DNA of 64,000 nt from Eledone cirrhosa. Lineage: Eukaryota. The position numbers were made by a program, and so were the translations under genes. Position 1 is the stretch's first letter. Every line of letters starts with the position of its first letter. Shown in pieces: positions 991 through 25,774 of the stretch. A model generated the notes under the pieces. That model had not been told where the DNA came from. It did no database searches and saw only the letters and a list, made by a program, of their open reading frames with translations. The DNA lies in NCBI GenBank assembly GCA_964016885.1, contig OZ024751.1, forward strand, positions 23,622,001-23,686,000, read 5' to 3'.

Positions 991-1950
<960 letters not shown>

Positions 1951-2475
1951 AAACAAGGTTTAGCAAACAAGAAAAAATTTTTAAATAAATTTTAAAAATT
2001 TACTGTACCTGCTTTAGTTACCCTTACCGTACGGTTTCAAGTCTCAAAAATAAATGGAGTGTCCTTACGGACCTCCATTGAACAGAAAGACTCGTCAGAA
2101 GGTTCTTTTCACTCGGAGACTATAAAATTCCCGAGTTCAAATTACGAACTGGCGCTATTCTAAATTGTTCCAGATATGAGAGTGAATGATATAGAAGAAA
2201 TTCTGTCCAGTGTCGTGTGCAAATATAGAAGGCAGAGGCGGAAAGGTCAATCCACGGCCATTAGAAATAGCAGTAGTCAAAACGACCAACATGTTATCTC
2301 GACAAGGGGAGATTAATAATAATAAAGTATATATCCCTACATGCAAATACATATAGGGACACATGCATTATCCAACCATATGCCAATGTGGTTCTATGGA
2401 AGGTTAATAAATTAACGAGCCAGAACATATATAATCAAGGTTTAACAAACAAGAAAAAGTTTTTAAATAAATTTT

Positions 2476-2480
<5 letters not shown>
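1951..2480 (-). mobile_element. About 530-bp non-coding element with ~50-bp direct terminal repeats and a hammerhead motif (pLTR/retrozyme-like)
   Basis: Both ends read caaggttta(g/a)caaacaagaaaaa..ttt(t)aaataaattttaaaa. Further copies at 29022-29550 (opposite orientation), 29645-30175 and 30400-30930; partial copies at 15050-15243 and 43666-43860. Confidence 0.65.
2021..2102 (-). ncRNA. Candidate type-I hammerhead ribozyme
   Basis: Minus strand reads CCTT-CTGACGA-[GTCT..AATGGAG GTCC GTAA GGAC A CTCCATT..AGAC]-TT-GAAA-CCGTACGG-TA-AGGG. Palindromic stem III, GUA cleavage triplet, 2-nt insertion before GAAA. Confidence 0.6.
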
Positions 2481-2525
<45 letters not shown>

Positions 2526-2636
2526 TATAAATGTATATATATATATGTATATATATGTATATATATATATTAAGTTTTAAAATAAATTTTAAAATATATA
2601 TATATATATATATTAATGTATATATATATATGTATA

Positions 2637-2754
<118 letters not shown>

Positions 2755-2854
2755 AAAATAAATTTTAAAACTTAATATATATATATATATACATATATAT
2801 ACATATATATATGTATATATATATATGTATATATATGTATATATATATATATAA

Positions 2855-2885
<31 letters not shown>

Positions 2886-3289
2886 CATATATATATACAC
2901 ATTGAACAGCTAGGTCTTAACAGACCTAACTGTCCCAACGGCCGGAGCTTAGCCGCCGGGGTTCTGATACTTTTGCTATTATCCACTCACTACGCTAAGT
3001 ATCGAGTACTCTGGTGCTTTATTTGTCCACTCGGTTCCTTAGCACAATTCCTTCGTTCTATATACATTATATATGTTTTTTGAAATATTCACTTCTGCGT
3101 TCACAGATTGACTTTGTTAGTTTCAGAAGAACCGGTTAAGGGTGAAAGCAGCGATTCTTTGCTTAAACTTTAATCTGTTATTTTAATAAATATTTGCTCT
3201 ACGGTTCTTATATATTTGATATATATTTATCCTTATCGAGCCCTCTTTGGATTTTAGTCTTCAAATTTATTATTATTACTCTATGTATG

Positions 3290-3349
<60 letters not shown>

Positions 3350-3356
3350 ACATACA

Positions 3357-3402
<46 letters not shown>

Positions 3403-3403
<1 letters not shown>

Positions 3404-3599
3404 TAGGGTCGGCTGAAAGAGTTCATAAGCTGACAAAGGTACACTCTTGGAATGGTCAATTGTGGTATATTTTTCAATATCTTTCCTGAAAAGAAACAAT
3501 GCAGTTATCTATAAAAAGAGCTGAAATCAACGCATCCGAGATTTGACAAACCTAGCATCAGCCTTTCACACAGCCTATGAACTTTTCCGACGACCCTTG
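3403..3599. mobile_element. Tc1/mariner-type MITE (copy at 31886-32082)
   Basis: Imperfect ~25-bp TIRs (ctagggtcggctgaaagagttcata / tatgaacttttccgacgacccttg) flanked by TA on both sides. Confidence 0.65.
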
Positions 3600-3787
3600 T
3601 AAGTTCTTCTGACGGAAATTGGTAGACTGAATAGAGCAGATTTCTTCCAGAGAAAGATAGAGAGAGAGAGAAGAAGTGTGAAAGAGATATAGAGGAAGAA
3701 CCTACCCTAGTACTAGGTCACGTTGGATAATATAATCCTACGTTTAACTAATAGCTTTTGCACTATTTAGACTAACGATGAGTTTAA

Positions 3788-3889
3788 CACCATCACCATC
3801 ACCATCACCATCATCATCATCATCATCATCACCATCATTATCATCATCGTCTTCATCATCATTATCATTATCCTCATCATCACCATCAC

Positions 3890-3925
<36 letters not shown>

Positions 3926-3977
3926 GATTATCATCATCGTCTTCATCATCATCATCACCATCATTATCATCATCGTC

Positions 3978-4028
<51 letters not shown>

Positions 4029-4058
4029 GCTATCATCATCATCATCATCATCATCATC
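3788..4058. repeat. (CAT)n trinucleotide tract (paralogs 16121-16188, 32270-32607, 44698-44770)
   Basis: Direct reading; source of the poly-Met/Ile/Ser ORFs. Confidence 0.95.
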
Positions 4059-4894
4059 GAGAATAACAACAACCTAATCATTATCCTTGTAGTCAAAACA
4101 AAGCTAAAAAAAGAAAGCAACAAATCTGTACAAAGGAACTATGGAAAGAAGTCTCTAGAAAAAACGATACCAAGCGACAAATTGATACGAAGATCGATTT
4201 ATTGAATAAGGAAGCGATTAAGATATGAAACATCCGGGTTGTTAGAAAACGTATGAGATGAGAGAAAATATATTTAAGTAGCGTTTATTGTTGTTGACCA
4301 CAGATGGTAAGAGTGGTGCTTGTTGGTTTGGGTGGTAATTGTAAATATAAAAATAAATATAAATATATATATACACATACATATCCATACAAACACTGAC
4401 ACACACACTCAAACGCACACGCACACGCACACACAGACCGACACACACACGCACGCACACACGGACCGACACACACACACACAAATATATATACACGTGT
4501 GTGTAAATAATAGTACAGTTACGAAAGTTGTTAGGTATTATGTTCACGCTTGTGTTTATGTGTGTGTGTGCCTGTGAGTGTGTGTGTGTTTGTGTATTTG
4601 TGCATGTGAGTGTGTGTGTGTGTGCGTACGTGTATGTAAGAATGTATACATATATATTTATATAGATATGTATATAAATATATATGTATACATGTTTACA
4701 TAACACGTAGTTACACATATACACACGCACAAACACACACTCACACTCTCTCTCTCTGTCTCTCTCTCTATCTTACACACACACACACACATACACACAT
4801 ATATATATATAGTTTAGAATTGGTGTTCGAAAAGTTCTTCGAAATGCTTTTAATTAAGCATACAGTGTATTGCAAAATACACTGTATATACATT

Positions 4895-4988
<94 letters not shown>

Positions 4989-5071
4989 GGAGGTGAGTTT
5001 TATTGTAGTACAATAAAGCAATGCAGATATCGGATAAGAAGCACTCTACAGTTTGTGGGACTGGAGTATGC

Positions 5072-5407
5072 ATAATATAAGATCAAAAGATGGTTAAAGG
5101 AGTTCCATATATTTTATTATGCGCATTTCAAAAACAAACATCATCAAGCAATAATATTTGTGTTTTCATCAGATAAAACAGGAGAACATGATATGAAGGC
5201 TAAAAAATACTTGTGGATAGTGCAGCTTTAAATCAACATATGTTGATTTAAAGCTGCACTATCCACAAGTGTTTTTTAGCCTTCATATCATGTTCTCCTG
5301 TTTTATCTGATGAAAACACAAATATTATTGCTTGATGATGTTTGTTTTTGAAATGCGCATAATAAAATATATGGAACTCCTTTAACCATATTTTGATCTT
5401 ATATTAT
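5072..5407. repeat. 336-bp spacerless palindrome (inverted Penelope-type pLTR pair)
   Basis: 168-bp arms centred on caacat|atgttg (5239/5240), with 2 mismatches seen. Copies at 17203-17538 and 33612-33947. Confidence 0.93.
5300..5368 (+). ncRNA. Type-I hammerhead ribozyme in the palindrome right arm (mirror copy on minus strand 5111-5179)
   Basis: TTTTAT-CTGATGA-(long G-U-rich stem II aaacacaaatattattg/tgatgatgtttgttttt)-GAAA-TGCGCA-TA^ATAAAA. All three stems pair; predicted cleavage after 5361. Confidence 0.72.
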
Positions 5408-6176
5408 ATATATATATATATATATATGGATGACTGAAGGCTGACGTGCTTACTTCTAAAATGTCTCCCGTGTCTTTCTCTTCTCGCTCTCATCTATCCT
5501 TTTTTATAACTTTATATCTTCTTTTATTTCTTCTAGCCGAACCTCTTCCTTACTCATAACTAACAAGGTTGTGTTGGCTACCCACAGGAGCGAGTCTCAC
5601 GAATTGGAATGGCTATTCCAACAGGTCTCCCTCACCATGCTCTAGAGCAGCGTTTCCTCCATTCTGTTCGCTGGGACCATCAGACAGATATACATAATTG
5701 ATATTTATCAGAAATTGTGTGAAAGGACCTACAACACTCATCTAAGTTTATATCAAAATTGAATACCTTTAAGTGATTGTGTGAACGCTCATTGAATAAA
5801 AAATACAACAATTCAACACACCTTAACATTAGTTTTCACTTAACATTTGTGTTTCCGTATGTAATTACCTTTGAGAGAACAAGAACAGTAACGCCGCCGC
5901 CATCTTAACATAGTATTTCTTTGATTTGAAAGTTAATAGTCCGCTGGGTTTTGTGGATGTAAATCCCGCTGTAATAAGGTAAGATGTAAGCCTTTGGTGT
6001 TTCATATAATATATTAACATTGTATAATATGTTAGCCATAAAAGAATGTTAAATTTCAATATATGCTTTTAACAGACAATTACATCGCTCCAAATGTATC
6101 CAGAATAGCACACACACACACATACACACACAGACACATACATACACATACACACACGCAGTTACACACATAGACA

Positions 6177-6263
<87 letters not shown>

Positions 6264-6833
6264 CACATATATATATATGGAACGTTTTGCTGTCTAACTT
6301 ACACAGAAGGCGCAGCAGACACTTTAGGAGAAGCTTATAACCAATTTGTTGAAACCCAGGGCTGAAATACCAGCTATTTTCTTGAAACAGGAAAAATGAA
6401 AAATGAATTTGCTGCTAGTTCTTCACTAGTGTACTTATCTTATTCTTCCTGGACTGATGAATGGTGAAGATGGCATCAGTTTCGAACTGAACTCATTGTA
6501 CGAAGAAACCAAACGATTTATCCACTAGGTGTGATGTCTTCTTTCAGAGCACGACACTCTGTTAACGCTGGGGTATCCTACACTTTAGGGATTTAACTTT
6601 ATCATTTGCAGTGACAATGTTATCCGAGTCGAAGAAGAAAACCTTCCATCTCATACATTTGACGACATCCGGACCCTTATCCAGTAACATCGAATGATCA
6701 TTGTTTTTCGCGGATATGGTAAGTTTCTTTATTGAGTTAGTCATTTTGTATTGTTCCATGTTGATATGAGGTAATTATAAAAAAGTAATTATGAAAAGTG
6801 AAAAATTATTATATATTACAAATCTATAAACAA

Positions 6834-7020
6834 TGGATTGGTAGTATCGGTAGGGGGTCGGACATCATGCTTTGACGCATAGAGTTACGGCCCTTTCCAT
6901 TCTGAGTTCAAATCCCTCCGAGGTCAACTTTGCCTTTCATCCTTACGGCGTCGATGAAATAAAGTACCAGTAATGTATTGTGTAATTGCTGGCCTTAAGC
7001 CAAAAGTAGAAACAATTATT
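6834..7020 (+). mobile_element. Octopus-type tRNA-derived SINE (copies near 14300, 18949, 35365, 43002, 49174(-), 61969(-), 62168(-), 63012, 63205, 63400, 63866(-))
   Basis: A-box-like tgg(c/t)agtatcgg, B-box gagttcaaat, core actttgcctttcatccttacgg..tcgat.aaataaagtaccag and tail gctggccttgtgcc...tagaaacaattatt, repeated more than 10 times. Confidence 0.8.
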
Positions 7021-7630
7021 TATATATTTATTTATTTATATATATTTATAAATTAATTAATTTATTTATTTATTAATCTTATCCTTTTCCAAATTATATT
7101 AAGAATGTAAAATTACAAATCTATAAACAATATGTATATTTTATATTATTTCTATATTTATTTATTTATATATATTTATAAATAAATAATTAAATTAATT
7201 AAGTTAGTTATTTATTTATTTATTAATCCTTTTCCAAATTGTATTAAGAATGTCCAAGTATGGAGATGAATTTATTTAGTAGTGGATTAAAGTATGTATC
7301 TAATTTATGAACACTATTACTAGCTAGTTATTGTGTGTTATATTTATTCAGAAATGAAATAATGAAATGGAAGATATTTTAAGAATAAGATGATATAGGA
7401 AGGTACATAATGTATTTATTTAATCTATTTTATGGGAATAATGTATAAATAAAGTATAAGATCTGTAGTAGAGAAAAGAAGTTACAAGGAGTGTATTAAT
7501 ATATTAAGGTTTTCGTAATAGTTTTATTATCAAGTGGGAAAAGAGGATATAGGATAGAAATATATATGTGTATGAGAGTATTGAAGTTTGCTTGAAGCAT
7601 TGTGGAATAATAAGGTAAAATTGTGGAATA

Positions 7631-8794
7631 ATAAGGTAAATTTCTTTAAGTCGTTTGGAAGCCTCGACAATGCAGATGGGTAAATCTCCGAAATAACAAG
7701 ATCCGGTGGTGGAGAGAGATGTAAGTGGGTGTACGTTGAAATGCTTGGCGTGTATAAGACGTGTAGAGAAATGAAGGAAAGAGCGTAATCAACTGACGCG
7801 TGCTCTCTCAGAAACTGCCCGATGCACCATGGGAAATGTTGCCTACGCACATACGTCGTGTATAAGATAGAATGTAACAAGTGCAACCAATACTATATAG
7901 GTAGCACAATCCGGCCGTTGCAGATCCGGATCAAGGAACACACCAAAACAAGGGCCTCGTCTTTCCGGAAACACATAGCCAAATGCGGAAACAAAGACGG
8001 AAAAACCATTGTCACAATTCTAGCGACAGAAAGAAACGTCGGCACGTTACGTATCAAGGAAGCACTTTGGATCAAACGCCTAGGGCCACAATTAAACAGC
8101 CGATCCGAGAGAAGCGAAATGAGGTGGTTGGTTTAAGTTAACAAACGATGCAGCAATACACGCACACACACAAGCGAGACAGCAACACACGCACACACAC
8201 ACACAGTAGCATTCCACCACACGAACACACTACACTGCCAATACAGAGGAACAAGGCAACAACACACGCACACACACGAACACACTCAAGCGAGACAACA
8301 ACACACACACACACACACATAGTAACATTCACCAAACGGGCAGAGAATGGACTGACAGCTAGCGCCACCCCACTACCACAATTGAAAGAACAACTTCGGC
8401 CGCTGACCTCTGCCTGACCGACCCCATTTCAAGCGCACGCACGCTCTGCTGAATACCTCAGATATTCAAAACAACGAACAGCGGAGGACACATTCCGCAG
8501 CTTTCCGACAGACAACCTTTCCTCTACCCCCCCGGAAAAACCCCCAGTCGATGGATGTGAATCCGAAATATATAGGGACGATTAAATCTCTCCCAATGTA
8601 ATTCTCTCTCGTGTTGTTATTTTTATCTTTATCCTTTACGCTCTTTCCTTCATTCCTCTACACGTCTTATACACGTCACGCATTTCAACGTACACCGACT
8701 TACATCTCTCTCTCCACCAACGGATCTTGTTACCCGGAGATTTACCCATCTGCATTGTCGAGGCTTCCAAACGACTTAAAGAAATTTACCTTAT
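7631..8794 (+). mobile_element. 5'-truncated Penelope-like element (GIY-YIG endonuclease remnant) with ~160-bp inverted terminal pLTR segments
   Basis: ORF 7822-8136 contains VVYKIECNKCNQYYIGST.RPL..RIKEH. 7631-7788 is the reverse complement of 8636-8794. Carries a 126-bp deletion relative to the other two copies. Confidence 0.85.
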
Positions 8795-9048
8795 ATATGT
8801 GTAGTGTCTGAAAGCTGGTCACCATTAACATAGAATATGGTTTAGAAGGTTTGATTTAGATTGTATTTTCTAACAAGTCTCTCTTCGATTTCAGGTAGAC
8901 GATTCTTCTGGTTACTATAAAACCTTGTATATCTGTAACAGCGACTCATTTCTTCAATAAGAACCTAAGAACTTGAAAACTACTATTTCCTGCCGATATT
9001 GTTACTGCTGTCACAAGTAATTTACTGAATCACATACATTTACGTGGA

Positions 9049-9216
<168 letters not shown>

Positions 9217-9493
9217 TATATTCATATATAATGAAACAACTTCCTAAATGATAAAAAAGATGGACTATTTAATATGTTATTATATAATCCTCGTATATGT
9301 TAACAATCAGTTCTTATAACTTTTACTTGCGCCTATAACAGTGACCTAACACTTACTAAATGAAACACCTAAAACTTTGACAAATTAATATTTATATTTA
9401 TTAGAGAAAGTTAATATTTAATGGAGTGAATTTATATGTATCAGAGAAACATTAATACAAAAACTAAAATTGGCTCGTTTACAAATAGGAAAG

Positions 9494-10699
9494 ATGAAGA
9501 TGTTGATAAACTATTTTGTTTTAATCCTGACAGCAACTCTATCGCTAGTAAATCTCAGTCCTACGCGGGAAGATGAAATTCTACTACATACTAACTTGTT
9601 ATCCACTTATAACAAACAAATAAGGCCTGTTTCGAATTTGAATAAATCAGTCGATATAGAGGTTTGGTTATTCCTTAAGACGCTCTATAATTTCGATTTT
9701 GTAAATAACATATTAATTGCACAATACTTCATTATCTTCTACTGGGAAGATGAAATGCTGAGATGGAATCCAGAAGATTACCATAACCTCACACGTACAT
9801 ACTTACCGAAAGCTAAGGTATGGACACCAGGTGTCATAATGTGTAATTCAATGAAGGAATCAGACGATAAAGATAGTTTTCCCGAGGTAATAGTTTATAA
9901 TGAAGGGTGGATAGAAATGCGGGCACTAAAATCAGTAGAGACATATTGTGAAGTAGATGCTTACACCTACCCATTTGATAAACAGGAGTGCCCAATCTGC
10001 ATATCTGTCACTGTGCACGAACCTCAGCATACCAAATTTGTATCAATTAATTGCGGGGTTAATGAATTTGAAAATAACCACCAATGGGGTATCAGCATGG
10101 ATGGTCAAGTAGACCCAAAGAACGACATATACAGCTCCGTAACAGCTACGATGTTCTTACAACGTAAACTCACAGTAGGTATTTTGGCTATGCTAATTCC
10201 AACTGTAATGATGACACTTTTAACTATCTTTGTGTTTCTCCTGCCCCCTGAATCAGGAGAGAAAGTCTCTTTAGCAACAACGATATTTTTATCAAATGTC
10301 TTATACCTCGTTCAAATAGATAAAACGACGCCTAAAAACTCAAAATATCCTTCACTTCTGATGTTGTATTTAATGTTGTTATCAATGTGCAGTGGAGTCG
10401 CCACACTTGGTTCAGTGGTTCTCAGTAAATTGTATGTAAACCAATCGGCTAAGGAAAAGAATTCATCGGCTTTAGATCAAAATAATACCAAACCTCAGGG
10501 TAACAAAATTGCTGATGTTTCACTAATTTCCACAGCACAAGCTTATCCTGCCATGACACAGGAAAGGTCAAAGTTAAAACGATGGTTCTACATCTCTGAC
10601 TACGTACGACTTGACAACATTTTTCTAAAACTTAGCGTCGTAACATCAATAATAATTGCAATATTATTTGTAACTTTGTTGTTTACAGCTCCGGATTAA
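9494..10699 (+). CDS. Chemotactile receptor (CR)-like divergent nicotinic-type Cys-loop ion channel subunit, copy 1 (intronless CDS, 401 aa)
   Basis: Uninterrupted ORF. The ORF-track start at 9470 is TTG and the first ATG is at 9494. Hydrophobic signal peptide; nAChR-like motifs YNKQIRP, W.D..LRWNP and VWTP; Cys-loop C160-x13-C174 with YPFD; M1-M2 linker LPPESGEKVSL; four TM segments; short M3-M4 loop. No loop-C CC, no loop-B Trp, loop-A Tyr replaced by Cys. Intronless tandem organisation matches cephalopod CRs. Confidence 0.92.
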   Translation: MKMLINYFVLILTATLSLVNLSPTREDEILLHTNLLSTYNKQIRPVSNLNKSVDIEVWLFLKTLYNFDFVNNILIAQYFIIFYWEDEMLRWNPEDYHNLTRTYLPKAKVWTPGVIMCNSMKESDDKDSFPEVIVYNEGWIEMRALKSVETYCEVDAYTYPFDKQECPICISVTVHEPQHTKFVSINCGVNEFENNHQWGISMDGQVDPKNDIYSSVTATMFLQRKLTVGILAMLIPTVMMTLLTIFVFLLPPESGEKVSLATTIFLSNVLYLVQIDKTTPKNSKYPSLLMLYLMLLSMCSGVATLGSVVLSKLYVNQSAKEKNSSALDQNNTKPQGNKIADVSLISTAQAYPAMTQERSKLKRWFYISDYVRLDNIFLKLSVVTSIIIAILFVTLLFTAPD

Positions 10700-10819
10700 G
10701 CAATTCTAAAATATTGAAAAATAAACTAAACGTACATTCATAAATACATCGCTATTTCAGAGCACCAATAAGTGTGTATTTATATATATAATGTAGTAGT
10801 AGTGCACTCAGTCCATGGG

Positions 10820-13222
10820 ATAAGATTGGTAGAAGGAGTTCCACAACAGTTAATTCACAATATCGAACACAAATCTAACACCATATTCGGATCCTCATTT
10901 CGTTCTAGACAGAGCTGAGGATCCGATGAACAAGGTGAAACATTTGTTCTCGGTATGGTCTATTAACTGTTGTGGAACTAACTCTATAATATATTTAGAT
11001 TAGCAACGGATTTCACGCATCTCTGCTAATAAAAATATTTTTGATGATAAGGCAGAATACCACAACGAGGTTTAACATAGAGCAGGATACTCGAATAAAA
11101 TTAAATACTTAGATAACAATAACATTATAAATCATCCTAGAATTCATTATAATAACAATAAACAATTCAACTTAAATAGTAAACCAAACAAAAAAACTAG
11201 AACTAGAAACATTTTTTGGTACCCTCCCTCATTCTCATTAGGCGTTAAAACACCTTTAGCAAAGCTATTTTTTAAAGCACTAGATAAGTGCTTTCCTAAA
11301 GCCCACAGATACCACTCTATTTTTAACAGACACACTATAAAACTATCCTACTCTACTACTATGAACATAGCACAAAATATAAATAGAATCAATAATAGAA
11401 ACTTAAATTTAAACCCGAACCAAACAAACCAAAATAGCAATAATAGTATTTCTAATAACAATATTTATAATAATATTACCCCATAAAATGTAACTGTAGA
11501 ATTAAATCAAACTGCCCTTTACAAAATAATTGCTTAGACAAAAACTTAATTTATAAATGCACAGTTAAAACTAGAGACAAAATATTTAACTATATAGGTG
11601 CCACTTCTACAAAATTCAAAGAACACTGGTACAACCACAAACATACATTTAATAGGTCCGATAAAAAAAACTTCCACTTCACTTTCACATCTAATTTTGA
11701 ATTTAAAGGACAACAGTATACACCATTCAATATCTTGGGGAACCATTTCGAAAGCACCTGCATACCGAAATATGGTTTTCTCAAGGATCTGTCAATTGTG
11801 TATCGAGAAAATATTTTATATAATTAACTGTCAAAACTATTAATTTAAAAACAGAATTATTTTCTACTTGCAGACATCGCCAACATTCAACTTTCCGAAG
11901 TATTTTTAATCTATGATATTCATTACACTTGATTATATCTTATACACCTTTAAAATGATCCTATTACTTACTGAGTCTTTCTTTATGAATTTTAAATTTT
12001 TTTAAAAATGATCTTCCTTCTTAAATATAGTATTTTTTCCATTTGATATTCTTTTCCTAATGATACTCTTCTTAATCTATTTTTTAGATGTAGATTGATA
12101 CTCTTTAATTGAAATTCTGAAAGATATCCTCTTTACGATAGTTCTTCGAAATGCACTCTTGACTTATCTAATAATACATTTTTTCCTCTTTTTAATCTTC
12201 AAACTTTTCACACATCTTTCGACGTAAATAATATGTAATTGAAATTCTCATCCTTGAAAAACATATACAAAATACCTTATAATCTCACACAAAATAATAT
12301 ATAATTTTCTGTACATACTTTCTAAGTAAATCATTCATTAAATTTAATGGTTAGTAAATAATATTGGAGTTATCTTTTCATTTACAATTGAGCAAACATA
12401 GACATGATAACTGTATGATGAATTATATAATTTCGCTAAATTAACAATATTCTGAAAACATTTTCAATGTTGGAACACAAATTAGAATCTACAAATTATT
12501 CTCCTCTTACAACTTGAACTACGTCTTTTTTTTAAATATTTATGTAAAATGTAAAATTAACATCCTTCGTAACTCATATGAGAAATGTAAACAATTAATA
12601 AGTGTGGTTTATTTCTATAAAATCACCAAAAATACTTATACTTGCACAATTATTAATCTATATAGATATTTTTATACTTACACACTCTTGTAATGTAATA
12701 ACATAAAATGTACTTACAACTATAATTCTTCATATAATCTAATTGATTATATATACAATATTATAAATCATAATATAGCTAAATTACTTTTTTTTAATTC
12801 TGGAATCATATTCCACCATTCCTACAAACTTATAATTCTTTTTAAATTCACGTAAATACCAGCGTTTCTTTCTTTCTCTTTCTTATTCCTACACATACAT
12901 ATATATATATATCCTAATAATTATTTAAATCTACCTAGCGTCTAAAAATAATGCTTTTTTCAGCCCTATACGTCGACCTCATTTGCATACTCAACTTAAT
13001 AATTTAAAATATTTGACTTTTCCTCTCTTTCCCTTGTTTCCTTTTACTATCCAGGAAAAACTTGAACCGTTAAGATCTTCTTCCTGGATATGTCAATATT
13101 TATAAAACAATCTTTGTATGTTATCTGATGAGAGCGTACCAAAGTTTTGGTACCCTTGAAATATATAATATAGAATAAATATGGTTTTATAAATATAGTT
13201 TCCATTTATTTAATATCATTGT
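10820..13222 (+). mobile_element. Degenerate 5'-truncated Penelope-like retroelement (RT C-terminal region, GIY-YIG, 3' pLTR) downstream of CR copy 1
   Basis: Frameshifted translation gives RISRISANKNIFDDKAEYHNE.., RNIFWYPPSFSLGVKT, HRYHSIFNRHTIKLSYS, CNCRIKSNCPLQNNCLDKNLIYKC..YIGATSTKFKEHWYNHK and CQLCIEK. Imperfect inverted repeat at the 5' end (10837-10980); hammerhead motif near the 3' end. Confidence 0.82.
13115..13175 (+). ncRNA. Candidate minimal type-I hammerhead ribozyme (intact paralog 41820-41880)
   Basis: CTGATGA at 13125-13131, stem II gtaccaaa/tttggtac, GAAA at 13158-13161, TATATA^; short stem I. Confidence 0.6.
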
Positions 13223-13275
13223 ATATATATATATGTTATATTATATATATATAATATAATATATATATATATTAA

Positions 13276-13339
<64 letters not shown>

Positions 13340-13826
13340 ATATAATATATAATGTTATATAATAATAATAATAATCTTAATGGCGAGTGTGCGCGCCTGA
13401 CTACTTGGCACTTTCAAATCAGTTTGTCTACTAACTCATTCCCCCTTTTATTTCGGCCTATCTAGTCTACCGCCGCCAAGAAGGTAATAAACACGCCATT
13501 TAGTAGGACCAAACGACTTATTTGAGCGAAAGTAAGCTCCCCCCCCCCGATCACTGGCCACTCCTGGAGAAAAATAAGAAAAATAACAAACTTTTAAGAC
13601 TTTTTGCTTGGAATGTTTGCTTTTTTGCTTTGATTGCATGTCCATATATGGACTGTACTCCTTAATAAGTTCAGCTAAATTCCTGCCATTTTAATAATGT
13701 TGATTTAGTTCGGATCTAGCCTTCAGGGTCCTGAAACTTTTCATATTACTCCCTATACTATCGTAAGTATCGAGTAATCTGGTGGGCTATGATCCACCTG
13801 CTATCGTACCACATCCTTTCTGATAA

Positions 13827-13952
<126 letters not shown>

Positions 13953-14768
13953 CATATTTGATTACTCCGGTATGTTTGTTCAAGCCTTGTATAATGTAAT
14001 TGTAATAATGTAACAATTATCTGAATAAAATATTTCAACAAAATATTTTTTATTTTGTATAATTTTATAACACACATTTTATAACTCTATTCCACTAAGT
14101 ATGTTGTTCCATGCTCTACTGATTACACTAACAAAGTAAATAGCAACATCTCTTCTCGTGTAGGGAGGTGAGGGACATGAGTCATATTGTTTCAAATTCT
14201 AAATATCAGTGATATAATTCATGGAAAAAACTCTGCATTTCAATATTACTCAATATAAAATGTACTGCATGAATAATTGGAAGACATTATTTGTGATATT
14301 GGCAGTATCGGTAGAGAGTCGGACGCCATGCTTTCCAGCATAGTTACGTCCTTTTACGGTCTGAGTTCAAATTCCGCCGAGGTTGACTTTGCCTTTCATC
14401 CTTACGGGGTCGATAAAATAAAGTACCAGTAATACACTGGGATATTTTGCTGGCCTTGTGCCTAAAGTAGAAACAATTATTTGTGATAATATATCAAATC
14501 AAAATTACAATACATCTTATACTTAATTTGTGTCGTGTAAATAAATTTTTTTATACGCATCATATCTTGTCATATGGTTTAAATTTCATATAAATCGAAC
14601 GGAAAATATTTTCAGCAGGGGTTTTCAGCGGGGGTTTATGCCCCCGCGGAACCCTTTGATTAAAATGAAATATACTTATCCAAGTACCCTGGGCGATATA
14701 GTTTCAGAATTTATATGGTTTTATAACCATAGGAGTAGTCCGTGAACAAACAAACAGACAGGAATACA

Positions 14769-14904
<136 letters not shown>

Positions 14905-15244
14905 GAAAGGTATAGAAAGTATTGTAGCAAGAACCCAACAGTATTCCATAATATTAAAGTGACTATAGCGTCAGAATGGGAAAATGGTTAACATAAGATG
15001 TGCGAAAAAAAAAAATATATATATACATATAATCAAGTGAAAATGATCAAAATGTTATCTCGACAAAGGGAGATTAATAATAATAAAGTATATATCCCTA
15101 CATGCAAAGTACATATAGGGACACATGCATTATCCAACCATATGCCAATGTGGTTCTATGGCTGGTTAATAAATTAACGAGGCAGAACAAATATAATCAA
15201 GGTTTAACAAAAAAGAAAAAGTTTTAAAATAAATTTCAAAATAT

Positions 15245-16107
<863 letters not shown>

Positions 16108-17017
16108 ATATATATATATATCATCATCATCATCATCATCATCATCACCATCACCATCATCATCATCAACATCATTATCATCATCATCGAGAATAACAAC
16201 AACCTAATCATTATCCTTGTAGTCAAAACAAAGATAAAAAAAGAAAGCAACAAATCTGTACAAAGGAACTATGGAAAGAAGTCACTAGAAAAAACGATAC
16301 CAAGCGACAAATTGATACGAAGATCGATTTATTGAATAAGGAAGCGATATAATATATGAAACATCCGGGTTGCTAGAAAACGTATGAGATGAGAGAAAAT
16401 ATATTTAAGTAGCGTTTATTGTTGTTGACCACAGATGATAAGAGTGGTGCTTGTTGGTTTGGGTGGTAATTGTAAATATAAAAATAAATATAAATATATA
16501 TACACATACATATCCATACAAACACTGACACACACACACACACTCACACGTACACGCACACACATACACACACACACGCACACACCGACAGACACACACA
16601 CACACAAATATATATACACGTGTGTGTAAATAATAGTACAGTTACGAAAGTTGTTAGGTATTATGTTCACGCTTGTGTTTATGTGTGTGTGTGCCTGTGA
16701 GTGTGTGTGTGTTTGTGTATTTGTGCATGTGAGTGTGTGTGTGTGTGCGTACGTGTATGTAAGAATGTATACATATATATTTATATAGATATGTATATAA
16801 ATATATATGTATACATGTTTACATAACACGTAGTTACACATATACACACGCACAAACACACACTCACACTCTCTCTCTCTGTCTCTCTCTCTATCTTACA
16901 CACACACACACACATACACACATATATATATATAGTTTAGAATTGGTGTTCGAAAAGTTCTTCGAAATGCTTTTAATTAAGCATACAGTGTATTGCAAAA
17001 TACACTGTATATACATT

Positions 17018-17116
<99 letters not shown>

Positions 17117-17202
17117 GTAGGAGGTGAGTTTTATTGTAGTACAATAAAGCAATGCAGATATCGGATAAGAAGCACTCTACAGTTTGTGGGACTGGAGTAT
17201 GC

Positions 17203-17530
17203 ATAATATACGATCAAAAGATGGTTAAAGGAGTTCCATATATTTTATTATGCGCATTTCAAAAACAAACATCATCAAGCAATAATATTTGTGTTTTCAT
17301 CAGATAAAACAGGAGAACATGATATGAAGGCTAAAAAATACTTGTGGATAGTGCAGCTTTAAATCAACATATGTTGATTTAAAGCTGCACTATCCACAAG
17401 TGTTTTTTAGCCTTCATATCATGTTCTCCTGTTTTATCTGATGAAAACACAAATATTATTGCTTGATGATGTTTGTTTTTGAAATGCGCATAATAAAATA
17501 TATGGAACTCCTTTAACCATCTTTTGATCT

Positions 17531-17538
<8 letters not shown>
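17203..17538. repeat. 336-bp palindrome with two inverted hammerhead motifs, copy 2
   Basis: Centre 17370/17371; hammerhead motifs at 17431-17499 (+) and 17242-17310 (-). Confidence 0.92.
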
Positions 17539-17569
<31 letters not shown>

Positions 17570-18319
17570 TGACTGAAGGCTGACGTGCTTACTTCTAAAA
17601 TGTCTCCCGTGTCTTTCTCTTCTCGCTCTCATCTATCCTTTTTTATATCTTTATATCTTCTTTTATTTCTTCTAGCCGAACCTCTTCCTTACTCATAACT
17701 AACAAGGTTGTGTTGGCTACCCACAGGAGCGAGTCTCACGAATTGGAATGGCTATTCCAACAGGTCTCCCTCACCATGCTCTAGAGCAGCGTTTCCTCCA
17801 TTCTGTTCGCTGGGACCATCAGACAGATATACATAATTGATATTTATCAGAAATTGTGTGAAAGGACCTACAACACTCATCTAAGTTTATATCAAAATTG
17901 AATACCTTTAAGTGATTGTGTGAACGCTCATTGAATAAAAAATACAACAATTCAACACACCTTAACATTAGTTTTCACTTAACATTTGTGTTTCCGTATG
18001 TAATTACCTTTGAGAGAACAAGAACAGTAACGCCGCCGCCATCTTAACATAGTATTTCTTTGATTTGAAAGTTAATAGTCCGCTGGGTTTTGTGGATGTA
18101 AATCCCGCTGTAATAAGGTAAGATGTAAGCCTTTGGTGTTTCATATAATATATTAACATTGTATAATATGTTAGCCATAAAAGAATGTTAAATTTCAATA
18201 TATGCTTTTAACAGACAATTACATCGCTCCAAATGTATCCAGAATAGAACACACACACACATACACACACAGACACATACATACACATACACACACGCAC
18301 GCAGTTACACACATAGACA

Positions 18320-18378
<59 letters not shown>

Positions 18379-19750
18379 CACATATATATATATGGAACGT
18401 TTTGCTGTCTAACTTACACAGAAGGCGCAGCAGACACTTTAGGAGAAGCTTATAACCAATTTGTTGAAACCCAGGGCTGAAATACCAGCTATTTTCTTGA
18501 AACAGGAAAAATGAAAAATGAATTTGCTGCTAGTTCTTCACTAGTGTACTTATCTTATTCTTCCTGGACTGATGAATGGTGAAGATGGCATCAGTTTCGA
18601 ACTGAACTCATTGTACGAAGAAACCAAACGATTTATCCACTAGGTGTGATGTCTTCTTTCAGAGCACGACACTCTGTTAACGCTGGGGTATCCTACACTT
18701 TAGGGATTTAACTTTATCATTTGCAGTGACAATGTTATCCGAGTCGAAGAAGAAAACCTTCCATCTCATACATTTGACGACATCCGGACCCTTATCCAGT
18801 AACATCGAATGATCATTGTTTTTCGCGGATATGGTAAGTTTCTTTATTGAGTTAGTCATTTTGTATTGTTCCATGTTGATATGAGGTAATTATAAAAAGT
18901 AATTATGAAAAGTGAAAAATTATTATATATTACAAATCTATAAACAATGGATTGGTAGTATCGGTAGGGGGTCGGACATCATGCTTTGACGCATAGAGTT
19001 ACGGCCCTTTCCATTCTGAGTTCAAATCCCTCCGAGGTCAACTTTGCCTTTCATCCTTACGGCGTCGATGAAATAAAGTACCAGTAATGTATTGTGTAAT
19101 TGCTGGCCTTAAGCCAAAAGTAGAAACAATTATTTATATATTTATTTATTTATATATATTTATAAATTAATTAATTAATTTATTTATTAATCTTATCCTT
19201 TTCCAAATTATATTAAGAATGTAAAATTACAAATCTATAAACAATATGTATATTTTATATTATTTCTATATTTATTTATTTATATATATTTATAAATAAA
19301 TAATTAAATTAATTAAGTTAGTTATTTATTTATTTATTAATCCTTTTCCAAATTGTATTAAGAATGTCCAAGTATTATTATGGAGATGAATTTATTTAGT
19401 AGTGGATTAAAGTATGTATCTAATTTATGAACACTATTACTAGCTAGTTATTGTGTGTTATATTTATTCAGAAATGAAATAATGAAATGGAAGATATTTT
19501 AAGAATAAGATGATATAGGAAGGTACATAATGTATTTATTTAATCTATTTTATGGGAATAATGTATAAATAAAGTATAAGATCTGTAGTAGAGAAAAGAA
19601 GTTACAAGGAGTGTATTAATATATTAACGTTTTCGTAATAGTTTTATTATCAAGTGGGAAAAGAGGATATAGGATAGAAAGATATATGTGTATGAGAGTA
19701 TTGAAGTTTGCTTGAAGCATTGTGGAATAATAAGGTAAAATTGTGGAATA

Positions 19751-21041
19751 ATAAGGTAAATTTCTTTAAGTCGTTTGGAAGCCTCGGCAATGCAGATGGG
19801 TAAATCTCCGAAATAACAAGATCCGGTGGTGGAGAGAGATGTAAGTGGGTGTACGTTGAGATGCTTGGCGTGTATAAGACGTGTAGAGAAATGAAGGAAA
19901 GAGCGTAAATGCCACACCTGGGCGAGAATACCACCAACGCTATCCGCAAGTCTATACGGGGGGAGGGCCTCGACATCCATCTGGCCCACTCGAGCCCCTC
20001 CCTGCGAAGATGCCTTTCCAGGAAACCCGCGAAATCAACTGACGCGTGCTCTCTCAGAAACTGCCCGATGCACCATGGGAACTGTTGCCTACGCACATAC
20101 GTCGTGTATAAGATAGAATGTAACAAGTGCAACCAATACTATATAGGTAGCACAATCCGGCCGTTGCAGATCCGGATCAAGGAACACACCAAAACCAGGG
20201 CCTCGTCTTTCCGGAAACACATAGCCAAATGCGGAAACAAAGACGGAAAAACCATTGTCACAATTCTAGCGACAGAAAGAAACGTCGGCACGTTACGTAT
20301 CAAGGAAGCACTTTGGATCAAACGCCTAGGGCCACAATTAAACAGCCGATCCGAGAGAAGCGAAATGAGGTGGTTGGTTTAAGTTAACAAACGATGCAGC
20401 AATACACGCACACACACACACAAGCGAGACAGCAACACACGCACACACACACACAGTAGCATTCCACCACACGAACACACTACACTGCCAATACAGAGGA
20501 ACAAGGCAACAACACACGCACACACACGAACACACTCAAGCGAGACAACAACACACACATACACACACACAGTAACATTCACCAAGCGGGCAGAGAATGG
20601 ACTGACAGCTAGCGCCACCCCACTACCACAATTGAAAGAACAACTTCGGCCGCTGACCTCTGCCTGACCGACCCCATTTCAACCGCACGCGCGCTCTGCT
20701 GAATACCTCAGATATTCAAAACAACAAACAGCGGAGGACACGTTTCGCACCTTTCCGACAGACAAACTTTCCCTACCCCCCGGAAAAACCCCCAGTCGAT
20801 GGATGTGAATCCGAAATATATAGGGAAAATTAAATCTCTCCCAAGTTAACTCTCTCTCGTGTTGTTATTTTTATCTTTATCTTTACGCTCTTTCCTTCAT
20901 TCCTCTACACGTCTTATACACGTCACGCATCTCAACGTACACCCACTTACATCTCTCTCTCCACCAACGGATCTTGTTACCCGGAGATTTACCAATCTGC
21001 ATTGTCGAGGCTTCCAAACGACTTAAAGAAATTTACCTTAT
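19751..21041 (+). mobile_element. Penelope-like GIY-YIG remnant with inverted termini, copy 2
   Basis: ORF 19909-20382 has the Cys-rich linker plus GIY-YIG motif; same inverted termini. Confidence 0.85.
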
Positions 21042-21438
21042 ATATGTGTAGTGTCTGAAAGCTGGTCACCATTAACATAGATTATGGTTTAGAAGCTTTG
21101 ATTTAGATTGTATTTTCTAACAAGTCTCTCTTCGATTTCAGGTAGACGATTCTTCTGGTTACTATAAAACCTTGTATATCTGTAACAGCGACTCATTTCT
21201 TCAATAAGAACCTAAGAACTTGAAAACTACTATTTCCTGCCGATATTGTTACTGGAATATTCATCTCTCTCTCTTTCTCTTTCTCTCTCTCTCTCTCTCC
21301 TCTCTCCCTCTCTGTCTGTCTAGCTCTCTCTCTCTCTCTCTCTCCACCTCTCTCTGTATATATATATATATATATACTCTGCCTGTGCATCGAATATTCA
21401 TTTTGGTGCTGTCACAAGTAATTTACTGAATCACATAC

Positions 21439-21512
<74 letters not shown>

Positions 21513-21520
21513 ACACACAC

Positions 21521-21566
<46 letters not shown>

Positions 21567-21874
21567 ACTCATAAACACACAGCCACATACACATATATTC
21601 ATATATAATGAAACACAACTTCCTAATTGATAAAAAAGATGGACTATTTAATATGTTATTATATAATCCTCGTATATGTTAACAATCAGTTCTTATTATA
21701 ACTTTTACTTGCGCCTATAACAGTGACCTAACACTTACTAAATGAAACACCTAAACTTTGACAAATTAATATTTATATTTATTAGAGAAAGTTAATATTT
21801 AATGGAGTGAATTTATATGTATCAGAGAAACATTAATACAAAAACTAAAATTGGCTCGTTTACAAATAGGAAAG

Positions 21875-23080
21875 ATGAAGATGTTGATAAACTATTTTGT
21901 TTTAATCCTGACAGCAACTATATCGCTAGTAAATCTCAGCCCTACGCACGTAGATGAAATTCAACTACATACTAAGTTGTTATCTACTTATAACAAACAA
22001 ATAAGGCCCATTTCGAATTTGAATAAATCTGTCGATATAAAGGTTGAGTTATACCTTGGCAGACTCTATAATATCGATTTTGTAAATAACCTACTAATTG
22101 CACAATACTGGATTATCTTTTACTGGGAAGATGAACTGCTGAGATGGAATCCAGAAGATTACCACAATCTCACACATACATACTTACCGAAAGCTAAGGT
22201 ATGGACACCAGGTGTCATAATTTGTAATTCAATGAAGGAATCAGAAGAGAAATATAGTATTTCCGAGGTAATACTTTATAATAATGGGCGGATAGAAATG
22301 CGGACACAAAAAGTAATAGAGACATATTGTGAAGTAAATGCTTACAACTACCCATTTGATAAACAGGAGTGCCCAATCACCATATGTGTCGCTGTGCACA
22401 AACCTCAGCATACCAAATTTGTATCAATTAATTGCAGGATTCATGAAATTGATAAAAACTACCAATGGGGTATCAGCATGGATGGTCAAGTAGACCCAAA
22501 GAACGACATATACAGCTCCGTAACAGCTTCGATGTACTTACAACGTAAACTCACAGTAGGAATTTTGGCTATGCTAATTCCAGCTATAATGATGACACTT
22601 TTAACTATCTTTGTGTTTCTCCTGCCCCCTGAATCAGGAGAGAAAGTCTCTTTAGCAACAACGATATTTTTATCAAATGTCTTATACCTCGTTCAAATAG
22701 ATAAAACGACGCCTAAAAACTCAAAATCCCCTTCACTTCTGATGTTGTATTTAATGTTGTTATCAATGTGCAGTGGAGTTGCCACACTTGGTTCAGTGGT
22801 TATCAGTAAATTGTATGTAAACCAATCAGCTAAAGAAAAGAATTCATCGGTTTCAGATCAAAATAATACCAAACCTCAGGGTAACAAAATTGCTGATGTT
22901 TCACTAATTTCCACAGCACAAGCTTATCCTGCCATGACACAGGAAAGGTCAAAGTTAAAACGATGGTTTTACATCTCTGACTACGTACGACTTGACAACA
23001 TTTTTCTAAAACTTAGCGTTGTAACATCAATAATAATTGCAATATTATTTGTAACTTTGTTGTTTACAGCTCCGGATTAA
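21875..23080 (+). CDS. Chemotactile receptor (CR)-like Cys-loop ion channel subunit, copy 2 (divergent extracellular domain)
   Basis: Same length and architecture as copy 1. By hand count 50 aa differ from copy 1, 44 of them before M1. First ATG at 21875. Confidence 0.92.
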   Translation: MKMLINYFVLILTATISLVNLSPTHVDEIQLHTKLLSTYNKQIRPISNLNKSVDIKVELYLGRLYNIDFVNNLLIAQYWIIFYWEDELLRWNPEDYHNLTHTYLPKAKVWTPGVIICNSMKESEEKYSISEVILYNNGRIEMRTQKVIETYCEVNAYNYPFDKQECPITICVAVHKPQHTKFVSINCRIHEIDKNYQWGISMDGQVDPKNDIYSSVTASMYLQRKLTVGILAMLIPAIMMTLLTIFVFLLPPESGEKVSLATTIFLSNVLYLVQIDKTTPKNSKSPSLLMLYLMLLSMCSGVATLGSVVISKLYVNQSAKEKNSSVSDQNNTKPQGNKIADVSLISTAQAYPAMTQERSKLKRWFYISDYVRLDNIFLKLSVVTSIIIAILFVTLLFTAPD

Positions 23081-23259
23081 GCAATTCTAAAATATGGGAA
23101 AATAAACTAAACGTACATTCATAAATACATCGCTATTTCAGAGCACCAATAAGTGTGTATTTATATATATAATGAAAGTAGATCATATTCGAAGTTCGAG
23201 CGGGAGCTAAGCCAACAGATACATATAATGTAGTAGTAGTGCACTCAGTCCATGGAACA

Positions 23260-25640
23260 AGATTGGTAGAAGGAGTTCCACAACAGTTAATTCACAATAT
23301 CGAACACAAATCTAACACCATATTCGGATCCTCATTTCGTTCTAGACAGAGCTGAGGATCCGAAGAACAAAGTGAAACATTTGTTCTCGGTATGGTATAT
23401 TAACTGTTGTGGAACTAACTCTATAATATATTTAGATTAGCAACGGATTTCACGCATCTCTGCTAATAAAAATATTTTTGATGATAAGGCAGAATATTAC
23501 AACGAGGCTTTACATAGAGCAGGATACTCGAATAAAATTAAATCCTTAGATAACAATAACATTATAAATCATCCTAGAATTCATTATAATAACAATAAAC
23601 AATTCAACTTAAATAGTAAACCAAACAAAAAAACTAGAACTAGAAACATTTTTTGGTACTCTCCCTCATTCTCATTAGGCGTTAAAACACCTTTAGCAAA
23701 GCTATTTTATAAAGCACTAGATAAGTGCTTTCCTAAAGCCCAAAGATACCACTCTATAAAACTATCCTACTCTACTACTATGAACATAGCACAAAATATT
23801 AATAGAATCAATAATAGAAACTTAAATTTAAACCCGAACGAAACAAACCAAGATAGCAATAATAGTATTTCTAATAACAATATTCATAATAATAGTACCC
23901 CATAAAATGTAACTGTAGAATTAAATCGAACTGCCCTTTACAAAATAATTGCTTAGACAAAAACTTAATTTATAAATGCACAGTTAAAACTAGAGACAAA
24001 ATATTTAACTATATAGGTGCCACTTCTACAAAATTCAAAGAACGCTGGTACAACCACAAACATACATTTAATAGGTCCGATAAAAAAAACTTCCACTTCA
24101 CTTTCACATCTAATTTGGAATTTAAAGGACAACAGTATAGACCATTCAATATCTTGGGGAACGATTTCGAAAGCACCTGCATACCGAAATATGGCTTTCT
24201 CAAGGATCTGTCAATTGTGTATCGAGAAAATATTTTATATAATTAATTGTCAAAACTATTAATTTAAAAACAGAATTATTTTCTACTTGCAGACATCGCC
24301 AAAATTCAACTTTCCGAAGTATTTTTAATCTATGATATTCATTACACTTGACTATATCTTATACACCTTTAAAATGATCCTATTATTTACTGAGTCTTTC
24401 TTTAACAATATAAAAAATTTTTTTAAATGATCTTCCTTCTTAAATTTAGTATTTTTTCCATTTGATATTCTTTTCCTAATGATACTCTTCTTAATCTATT
24501 TTTTAGATGTAGATTGATACTCTTTAATTGAAATTCTGAAAGATATCCTCTTTACGATAGTTCTTCGAAATGCACTCTTGACTTATCTAATAATACATTT
24601 TTCCTCTTTTTAATCTTCAAACTTTTCACACATCTTTCGACGTAAATAATATGTAATTGAAATTCTCATCCTTGAAAAACATAATATAAAATACCTTATA
24701 ATCTCACACAAAATAATATATAATTTTCTGTACATACTTCCTAAGTAAATCATTCATCAAATTTAATGGTTAGCAAATAATATTGGAGTTATCTTTTCAT
24801 TTACAATTGAGCAAACATAGACATGATAACTTGTATGATGAATTATATAATTTCGCTAAATTAATAATATTCTGAAAACATTTTCAATGTTGGAACAAAA
24901 ATTCAAATCTACAAATTGGTCTCCTCTTACAACTTGAACTACGTCTTTTTTAAAAATATTTATGTAAAATGTAAAATTAACATCCTTCGTAACTCATATG
25001 AGAAATATAAACAAGTAATACGTGTGGTTTATTTATATAAAATCAACAAAAATACTTATACTTGCACAATTATTAATCTATATAGATATTTTTATACTTA
25101 CAAACTCTTGTAATGTAATAACATAAAATGTACTTACAACTATAATTCTTTATAAAATCTAATTGATTATATATACAATATTATAAATCATAATATAGCT
25201 AAATTATTTTTTTTAAATTCTGGAATCATATTCCACCATTCCTACAAACTTATGATTCTTTTTAAATTCACGTAAATACAAGCGTTTATATCTTTCTCTT
25301 TCTTCTTCCTACAGATACATATATATATCCTAATCATTTAAAAAAATCTACCTAGCGTCTGAAAATAACGTCTTTTTCAACCCTATACCTCGACCTCATT
25401 TGCATACTCAACTTAATAATTTGAAATATTTGACTTTTCTTCTCTTTCCCTTCTTTCCTTTTACTATCCAGGTAAAACTTGAACCGTTAAGATCTTCTTC
25501 CTGGTTATGTCAATATTTATAAAACAATCTTTGTATGTTATCTGATGAGAGCGTACCAAAGGTTTGGTACCCTTGCAATATATATGATAGAATAAATATG
25601 GTTTTATAAATATAGTTTCCATTTATTTAATATCATTGTA
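23260..25640 (+). mobile_element. Paralogous degenerate Penelope-like element downstream of CR copy 2
   Basis: Collinear with 10820-13222; its terminal hammerhead has GAAA mutated to GCAA. Confidence 0.8.
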
Positions 25641-25699
25641 TATATATATATATGTTATATCATATATATATAATATAAAATATATATATATATTTATAT

Positions 25700-25774
<75 letters not shown>

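Follow-up and report, generated by a model that had tools for sequence, protein, structure and literature searches.

Mosaic structure and likely diversifying selection on the ligand pocket in a young cluster of chemotactile receptor genes from Eledone cirrhosa

Three receptor genes in a tandem array

The window analyzed here is a stretch of 64,000 nucleotides from Eledone cirrhosa (assembly GCA_964016885.1, contig OZ024751.1, positions 23,622,001 to 23,686,000). It contains three intronless genes, all on the forward strand, copy 1 (L001, 9494..10699), copy 2 (L006, 21875..23080) and copy 3 (L002, 38142..39347), each an open reading frame of 401 codons that starts at the first position given. 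The three encoded proteins all differ from one another at only 3 of the 401 positions: in copies 1, 2 and 3, respectively, residue 58 is W, E and L (TGG, GAG and CTG), residue 60 is F, Y and L (TTC, TAC and CTC) and residue 79 is F, W and I (TTC, TGG and ATC); the adjacent residue 80 is I, I and M. On the + strand, these codons occupy 9665..9673 (58-60) and 9728..9733 (79-80, TTC ATT) in copy 1, fall within 22046..22111 (58, 60 and 79) in copy 2 and occupy 38376..38381 (79-80, ATC ATG) in copy 3, where both are private among the nine assembled genes described below and each is one base away from the cluster majority. The original prediction had singled out exactly this three-way pattern, and the re-read codons bear it out; its residue numbers (66, 68 and 87, as well as 88 and 89) are 8 too high because the count began at a TTG (9470), 8 codons ahead of the first ATG. 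We number from the Met throughout.

Copies 1 and 3 share the same backbone, with 16 nucleotide and 8 amino acid differences between them, compared to 74 and 50 between copies 1 and 2, and 73 and 49 between copies 2 and 3. All but one of the 16 coding base differences between copies 1 and 3 lie within nt 66-240 (codons 22-80). After residue 80, these two copies differ by a single synonymous change, in codon 285, such that their proteins are the same from residue 81 (89 in the earlier numbering) to the end, as had been noted. Among the 50 residues that distinguish copy 1 from copy 2, 44 are located in the region 22-225 and 1 in the signal peptide.

The genes reside in tandem segmental repeat units (1715..45661, + strand) of 12-16 kb with one receptor gene each; the genes are spaced by 12,381 and 16,267 bp. 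The unit flanks are 0.7-3.6% diverged between units, and 0.7-1.1% in the case of copies 1 and 3. After copy 3, at 42390-49003, the upstream flank sequence of the unit appears again with no receptor gene downstream; blastn detects no receptor remnant in this segment, which is possibly a truncated fourth unit. Further downstream, positions 49900-54100 are occupied by a very AT-rich (18-19% GC) simple-repeat block that contains long spurious open frames and is flanked by the two copies (49916-50375 and 53625-54083) of a 460-bp direct repeat.

A young expansion of CRT-type chemotactile receptors

Judged by their sequences, the three genes are chemotactile receptors (CRs) that belong to a young expansion of the CRT type. 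All three copies contain the PF02931 and PF02932 domains above the Pfam cut-off and display the Cys-loop architecture, with a ligand domain, a Cys-x13-Cys motif (C152-C166) and four membrane helices, predicted in copy 2 at residues 228-247, 255-278, 288-326 and 360-397. The best match in the PDB is CRT1 of Octopus bimaculoides (8EIS, 9E6B), likewise an intronless Cys-loop subunit, with an E-value of 1e-137, about 55% identity and no gaps over the extracellular domain; further matches are squid CRB1 (9e-42) and the 5-HT3A and nicotinic acetylcholine receptors (3e-32 or weaker). The top fold match of a structure model of copy 2 is 8EIS as well; the mean pLDDT of this model is 71, and it is higher over the two predicted strands 53-68, with residues 58 and 60, and 73-85, with residue 79. 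The coding sequence is a single exon, and CRs are reported to be intronless (PMC13174522).

The genome encompasses 25 near-full-length relatives of these genes, 24 of them on contig C11 within a 0.3-Mb stretch (23.62-23.93 Mb). Nine relatives, the three genes of the window included, share 82-100% identity with copy 1, retain open reading frames and form a clade with support of 100/100. In a comparison with 26 public homologues, this clade is found in this genome only: 24 of the homologues show 47-58% identity, with 58% being the maximum, the other 2 show 36%, and no orthologue of the clade was detected in the collection searched. The trees, which left out L017-L020 and L022 as well as L023 and L025, for which no clean frame was recovered, do not resolve the deep branches within the CRT-type group.

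Two other assignments were considered and rejected. The canonical acetylcholine cage includes a Trp in loop B and vicinal cysteines in loop C. In contrast to alpha7 and 5-HT3A, the CR copies lack both the loop B Trp and the loop C vicinal cysteines (in copy 1, the respective regions read ...CISVTVH... and ...PKNDIYSS...), and the loop D Trp is present in copy 2 only; with the aromatic cage residues absent, a canonical nicotinic acetylcholine receptor is rejected. An orthologue of CRT1, the progesterone and norharmane receptor, is rejected on pocket residues and tree position: not one of the residues Y58, W122, F124 and F192 is kept in any of the nine genes, which do not group with P0001-P0003 in the trees and constitute a clade of their own. 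None of the seven sequencing runs listed is recorded as RNA, and a 1420-base contig of the L005 type in X4, a run whose kind is not on record, was not counted as expression.

The variable residues align with the ligand pocket

Residue n here corresponds to CRT1 residue n-21 in the gapless extracellular alignment, so that residues 58, 60 and 79 correspond to L37 and Y39, in strand beta1/loop G, and to Y58, in the register of the loop D Trp. This register upholds the earlier placement of the three sites on the complementary face of the pocket. When residues 4-85 of the query are matched at equal length with 6-87 of the alpha7 chain, the three sites fall on chain positions 33, 35 and 54, which we take to be S34, S36 and W55 in the usual numbering, as the original prediction had it. 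The alignments also place F79 opposite the loop D Trp of 5-HT3A and R55 of Torpedo alpha; fold and register are shared with alpha7 and 5-HT3A, and copy 2 has a Trp at the loop D position as well. The names of loops G, E, F, B and C, and the faces to which they belong, follow common usage. Loop D is contributed by the complementary subunit (PMC10338036). A loop-by-loop mapping of CRT1 was not found in PMC11536092.

The published pharmacology of CRT1 bears directly on these positions. According to the legends of Figs 5, S7 and S8 of one preprint, L37A, Y39A and Y58V give no response to progesterone or norharmane (10.1101/2025.10.28.685082). The same source reports that Y39Q loses the progesterone response and keeps that to norharmane, that mutants at L37, Y58, F124 and S169 lose responses and E167A (residue 188 here) keeps them, and that W122L and F124V silence the receptor. 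Because substitutions at W122 and F124 silence CRT1, the nine genes, with R, L or P at the former position and L, Q, I or V at the latter, likely do not share its ligands. The effects of the CRT1 mutants would carry over by analogy, at about 55% identity, and the same analogy suggests that the copies differ in ligand specificity.

Selected CR sites are reported to concentrate in the pocket (PMC11526382). On Y58, the two preprints, in the parts available, disagree: across 235 CRs drawn from 30 species, Y39 is assigned to diversifying and Y58 to purifying selection (10.1101/2025.10.28.685082), whereas Y58, W122, F124 and F192, which touch all ligands, are called positively selected in the other (10.1101/2025.03.03.641191). 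In the nine genes, the Y58 position varies between F, W, I and L, a difference from CRT1.

The nine genes are mosaics

Recombination among the nine genes is detected with a PHI-type test (p = 1e-4), and the AICc decreases from 6916 to 6457 with 7 breakpoints: these genes are mosaics. In copy 3, a minimal conversion tract of 113 bp (38207..38319, + strand; nt 66-178, codons 22-60) matches L003, a paralogue located outside the window, at 12 of 12 consecutive informative sites (permutation p 0.003, the floor of 300 permutations). Its outer bounds are 38035-38357, for a size of 113-323 bp. Copy 3 equals copy 1 at the 8 informative sites upstream of the tract and at all but 2 downstream. Within the 113 bp, copy 3 shows 13 differences from copy 1 vs 1 from L003; over the next 1050 aligned bp after nt 216, the respective counts are 6 and 48. 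L58 and L60 are encoded by identical codons (CTG and CTC) in copy 3, L003 and L008, and most likely were imported into copy 3 from L003 as a block, by gene conversion. The simplest history, by parsimony, would have the transfer go from L003 to copy 3 after the split of copies 1 and 3. I79 and M80 of copy 3 lie outside the tract. Copy 1 is nearest to L008 over nt 31-150.

The original prediction held that several of the codon differences require multi-nucleotide changes. This is true of 6 of the 9 pairwise comparisons, which need at least two bases, but once the six paralogues outside the window are included, the codons are mostly linked by single steps (GAG-GGG-TGG, GAG-AAG, TAC-TTC-CTC, TTC-TTG-TGG and TTC-ATC), with CTG at 58 as the only state among the nine genes that needs two base changes.

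Gene conversion among CRs was not found in the literature searched, which stops short of key subscription papers and preprint supplements; the terms recombination, GARD, tandem and paralog are absent from the portions of text available for 10.1101/2025.03.03.641191 and 10.1101/2025.10.28.685082.

Excess amino acid change on the complementary face

As the pocket, we took 15 positions, the 14 mutated in CRT1 (10.1101/2025.10.28.685082) and A152, and determined, independently of any tree, the smallest number of changes able to connect the codons present in the nine genes. For the pocket, this minimum is 29 non-synonymous changes on 32.7 sites, against 56 synonymous changes on 300.8 sites for the complete gene, a ratio of 4.8; the excess over random extracellular codons is significant (permutation p 1e-5) and remains so without codons 58, 60 and 79 (20 changes, p 1.4e-4). 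That all three sites fall among the 15 pocket positions, out of 204 extracellular codons, has p = 3.3e-4, a value that is in part a necessary outcome, as codons 22-80 hold 15 of the 16 base differences between copies 1 and 3. In a test that is independent of the choice of sites in the original prediction, the six genes beyond the window show 7 amino acid changes at the three codons (permutation p = 0.0035).

Neutral simulation on the segment trees, with omega = 1 and the average rate per segment, yields 9.2 changes at the 15 pocket codons vs 29 seen, and 1.2 at codons 58, 60 and 79 vs 9 seen. For the 8 complementary-face codons, 4.6 changes are expected and 24 are seen; for the 7 principal-face codons, the numbers are 4.6 and 5 (p 0.50). 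Along three beta strands, 35 changes occur at 19 outward, pocket-phase positions and 6 at 17 inward positions (p 3e-5), and the alternation persists without the anchor sites (21 changes at 14 outward positions, p 5e-4). A mutational hotspot is rejected given that the adjacent inward codons 57, 59, 76 and 78 carry no changes.

Site models fitted to the nine-gene clade favor M2a over M1a, with signal at all three sites named by the original prediction. On 8 segment trees, the LRT is 34.3, with omega of 4.2 on 20% of the sites and posteriors of 1.00, 0.84 and 1.00 at codons 58, 60 and 79, that at codon 60 having fallen to 0.84 on partitioning; these values come from custom code with empirical Bayes (not BEB), 8 null replicates and breakpoints picked on the same data. 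The LRT of 84 obtained with one tree was set aside as inflated by recombination: in the 8 neutral replicates, a single tree yields LRTs of 2.0-32.3 and segment trees yield 0-6.1, so that here recombination alone can yield significant single-tree selection tests. For the pair of copies 1 and 3 alone, there is no sign of selection (extracellular pN/pS of 0.46, from 9 non-synonymous and 6 synonymous differences).

The pocket excess, thus, sits on the complementary face and outlasts the correction for recombination, and diversifying selection likely drives this face apart.

Proposed scenario and alternative readings

The family assignment, the pocket register, the excess of amino acid change in the pocket and the mosaic structure of the genes are established. 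On this basis, we consider it probable that young tandem copies of CRT1 type are diversified in the pocket by selection and gene conversion acting together, and that the copies would sense different surface chemicals. Copies 1 and 3 would have split at about 1% neutral divergence, after which a piece of L003, 113-323 bp long, would have overwritten copy 3, bringing in L58 and L60; I79 and M80 might be point changes, or might stem from another short tract whose donor copy is absent from the assembly. By family, the three genes would act as chemoreceptors in the sensory epithelium of the suckers and, like other CRs, would be gated by poorly soluble ligands rather than acetylcholine. The ligand binds between subunits, and the W/E/L, F/Y/L and F/W/I replacements would alter the size, aromaticity and charge of the pocket and, hence, the ligand range. 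Copy 1 would present an aromatic triad (W/F/F), copy 3 a smaller, aliphatic one (L/L/I) in an otherwise near-identical protein, and copy 2 E/Y/W within a more charged face. On the complementary face, selection would favor novel side chains, which conversion would spread and recombine.

Neurotransmitter sites of alpha7 and 5-HT3A are conserved within their families. The conservation of the AChR pocket is also noted in one of the CRT1 preprints (10.1101/2025.10.28.685082). Diversifying selection on the pocket is reported for CRs family-wide (PMC11526382; 10.1101/2025.03.03.641191; 10.1101/2025.10.28.685082), and the present clade resembles the CRT clade in that regard; the published comparisons involve old paralogues, whereas here the differences are among genes that are 82-98% identical. 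That CR pockets evolve fast, at the Y39 position among others, is accordingly already on record in these sources. The clade of nine genes is new, as are the ranking of its loop D position with the fastest sites and the probable role of conversion in generating pocket combinations. Gene conversion in tandem clusters is the subject of reports on rodent V1R receptors (PMC2644715), Drosophila chemosensory families (PMC4122928) and the clustered protocadherins of Xenopus (PMC4978886), and the CR cluster shares with such clusters the exchange of tracts between tandem paralogues along with diverging recognition surfaces. It differs from them in that CRs are pentameric channels whose pocket lies between subunits, and in that the tract brings in pocket residues where it might have erased them. 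The cluster shows a route of pocket change, through conversion and selection, that was not found described for CRs in the literature searched, and touches on the question of how octopuses cover chemical space with some 25 receptors. Copies 1 and 3, both intact and 8 residues apart, 3 of these at pocket positions, represent a natural near-isogenic pair for asking which residues determine specificity.

Rather than agonist choice, the target of selection might be the subunit interface or the evasion of an antagonist, given that the complementary face also sets assembly partners. CRs assemble as homo- and heteropentamers (PMC11526382), and the excess of change reaches codons 56, 62, 73, 77, 137 and 139, beyond the known ligand contacts. 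The fastest codons, 58, 79, 145, 188 and 190, however, are positions that line the ligand site in CRT1, and the L37, Y58, F124 and S169 mutants lost responses, even though E167A, at 188, kept them; we consider this reading unlikely.

The original prediction held that ligand specificity is retuned copy by copy at a few pocket residues; read strictly, this means a separate tuning of every copy through point and multi-base mutations in that handful of codons. W58 (by one private base), W79 and I79/M80 are indeed private to single copies among the nine genes, and the posteriors at 58 and 79 are high. The diversifying selection part of this claim stands, but the mechanism is incomplete because L58 and L60 of copy 3 sit, together with several synonymous differences, in the tract shared with L003, and copy 3 is copy 1-like again downstream; for these two residues, separate tuning is already largely refuted. 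The scope is incomplete, too: the change is wider than a few residues because variation also affects loop F and the outward positions on three beta strands, and because copies 1 and 2 are 50 residues apart. As a general account, separate tuning is rather improbable.

Constraint is loose throughout the gene, given an omega of about 1.0 over its whole length and only weak constraint on the membrane half, at a ratio of 0.66; in the extracellular domain outside the pocket, the ratio of 1.2-1.3 is not clearly above 1. It might, therefore, seem that redundant young copies simply drift and conversion shuffles the outcome, with the variety of pockets being non-adaptive, the more so as recombination inflates single-tree tests to LRT values of up to 32.3 under the null. 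The pocket, however, has changed about 3 times as much as in the neutral simulation and at 4.8 times the synonymous rate, the changes alternate along the strands, and all nine frames are open, which makes relaxed constraint quite improbable.

Read support for copy 3

Four of the seven runs listed contain the stretch; they represent at most two samples from one study and may be the source of the assembly itself. The check covers the 5' part of copy 3, among the contigs listed (25 of 63 pieces). One X1 contig equals copy 3 exactly over 38299-38433 and a second one over 38213-38312, which includes the private base 38261 of copy 3 beside L003-type bases. Hence, both this private base and the codons ATC ATG exist in reads. 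An X3 contig over the same span differs at two bases, one contig resolves codons 79-80 the other way, and the 31-letter graph does not phase codons 58/60 with 73/74, which are 39 bp apart. The TGG and TTC codons of copy 1 and the copy 2 codons do not appear among the rows listed, which is uninformative as contigs drop variants.

An assembly artefact, with two alleles assembled in tandem as copies 1 and 3 or with a read chimera of L003 and copy 1 as the tract in copy 3, would fit the small divergence between the flanks of copies 1 and 3, the contig with the other resolution of codons 79-80, the possible identity of the runs with the source of the assembly and a pocket type in the reads that the assembly lacks, but copy 2 lies between copies 1 and 3, the two X1 matches to copy 3 are exact and the differences are in frame, clustered and common to other paralogues, so that an artefact is very improbable.

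The pocket type in question is seen in X2 records 11 and 16 and X3 records 20 and 23 (38283-38424) and is absent from the nine assembled genes. It shows G58 and I60 along with L79, T81, L82 and, by subtraction, probably M80. Its origin may lie in an allele, in a paralogue missing from the assembly or in another individual.

A possible pocket library

The preferred scenario, in which selection and conversion jointly diversify the pockets of young tandem copies, has a more tentative extension. The cluster could, as one possibility, operate as a combinatorial pocket library, with sensing-domain grafts onto a shared membrane half, sets that vary between haplotypes and channels with multiple pockets. 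The shuffled cassettes would be beta1/loop G, beta2/loop D, beta6/loop E and loop F; entire sensing domains would be grafted onto the common membrane half, as in L010 and L011; shuffling would be fast enough for individuals or haplotypes to carry different receptor sets; and co-assembled subunits would create several different pockets within one channel. Should this be the case, the published selection tests for CRs would be inflated, the methods text available making no mention of recombination.

Other receptors of the cluster

The extracellular domains of L010 (G000:C11:23741265-23742539) and L011 (G000:C11:23750750-23752024) are 65% identical to copy 1 at the DNA level. Codons 241-400 of L010 are 92-100% identical to copy 1 in 20-codon windows, and in the tree of the membrane half, both genes nest inside the nine-gene clade. 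These genes likely combine an old sensing domain with the pore of the young clade, via domain-scale conversion or fusion.

L004 and L005 (G000:C11:23696196-23703867) are a second near-identical pair, the same from nt 135 to 630; their extracellular differences include I vs K at position 212, which corresponds to CRT1 L191, a site reported as positively selected. L025 (G000:C11:23863980-23865011), a distant CR paralogue adjacent to the similar L024, contains one in-frame TAG and is a probable pseudogene.

The E/Y/W triad of copy 2 (22046-22111) is the same as that of P0019, a CR of Octopus sinensis, at CRT1 positions 37, 39 and 58, and a Trp at the loop D position is also present in the public CRs P0017, P0018 and P0024; in the trees, none of these four is sister to the nine-gene clade. 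Because W79 is private to copy 2 within the clade, it likely represents a return to the nicotinic-type Trp.
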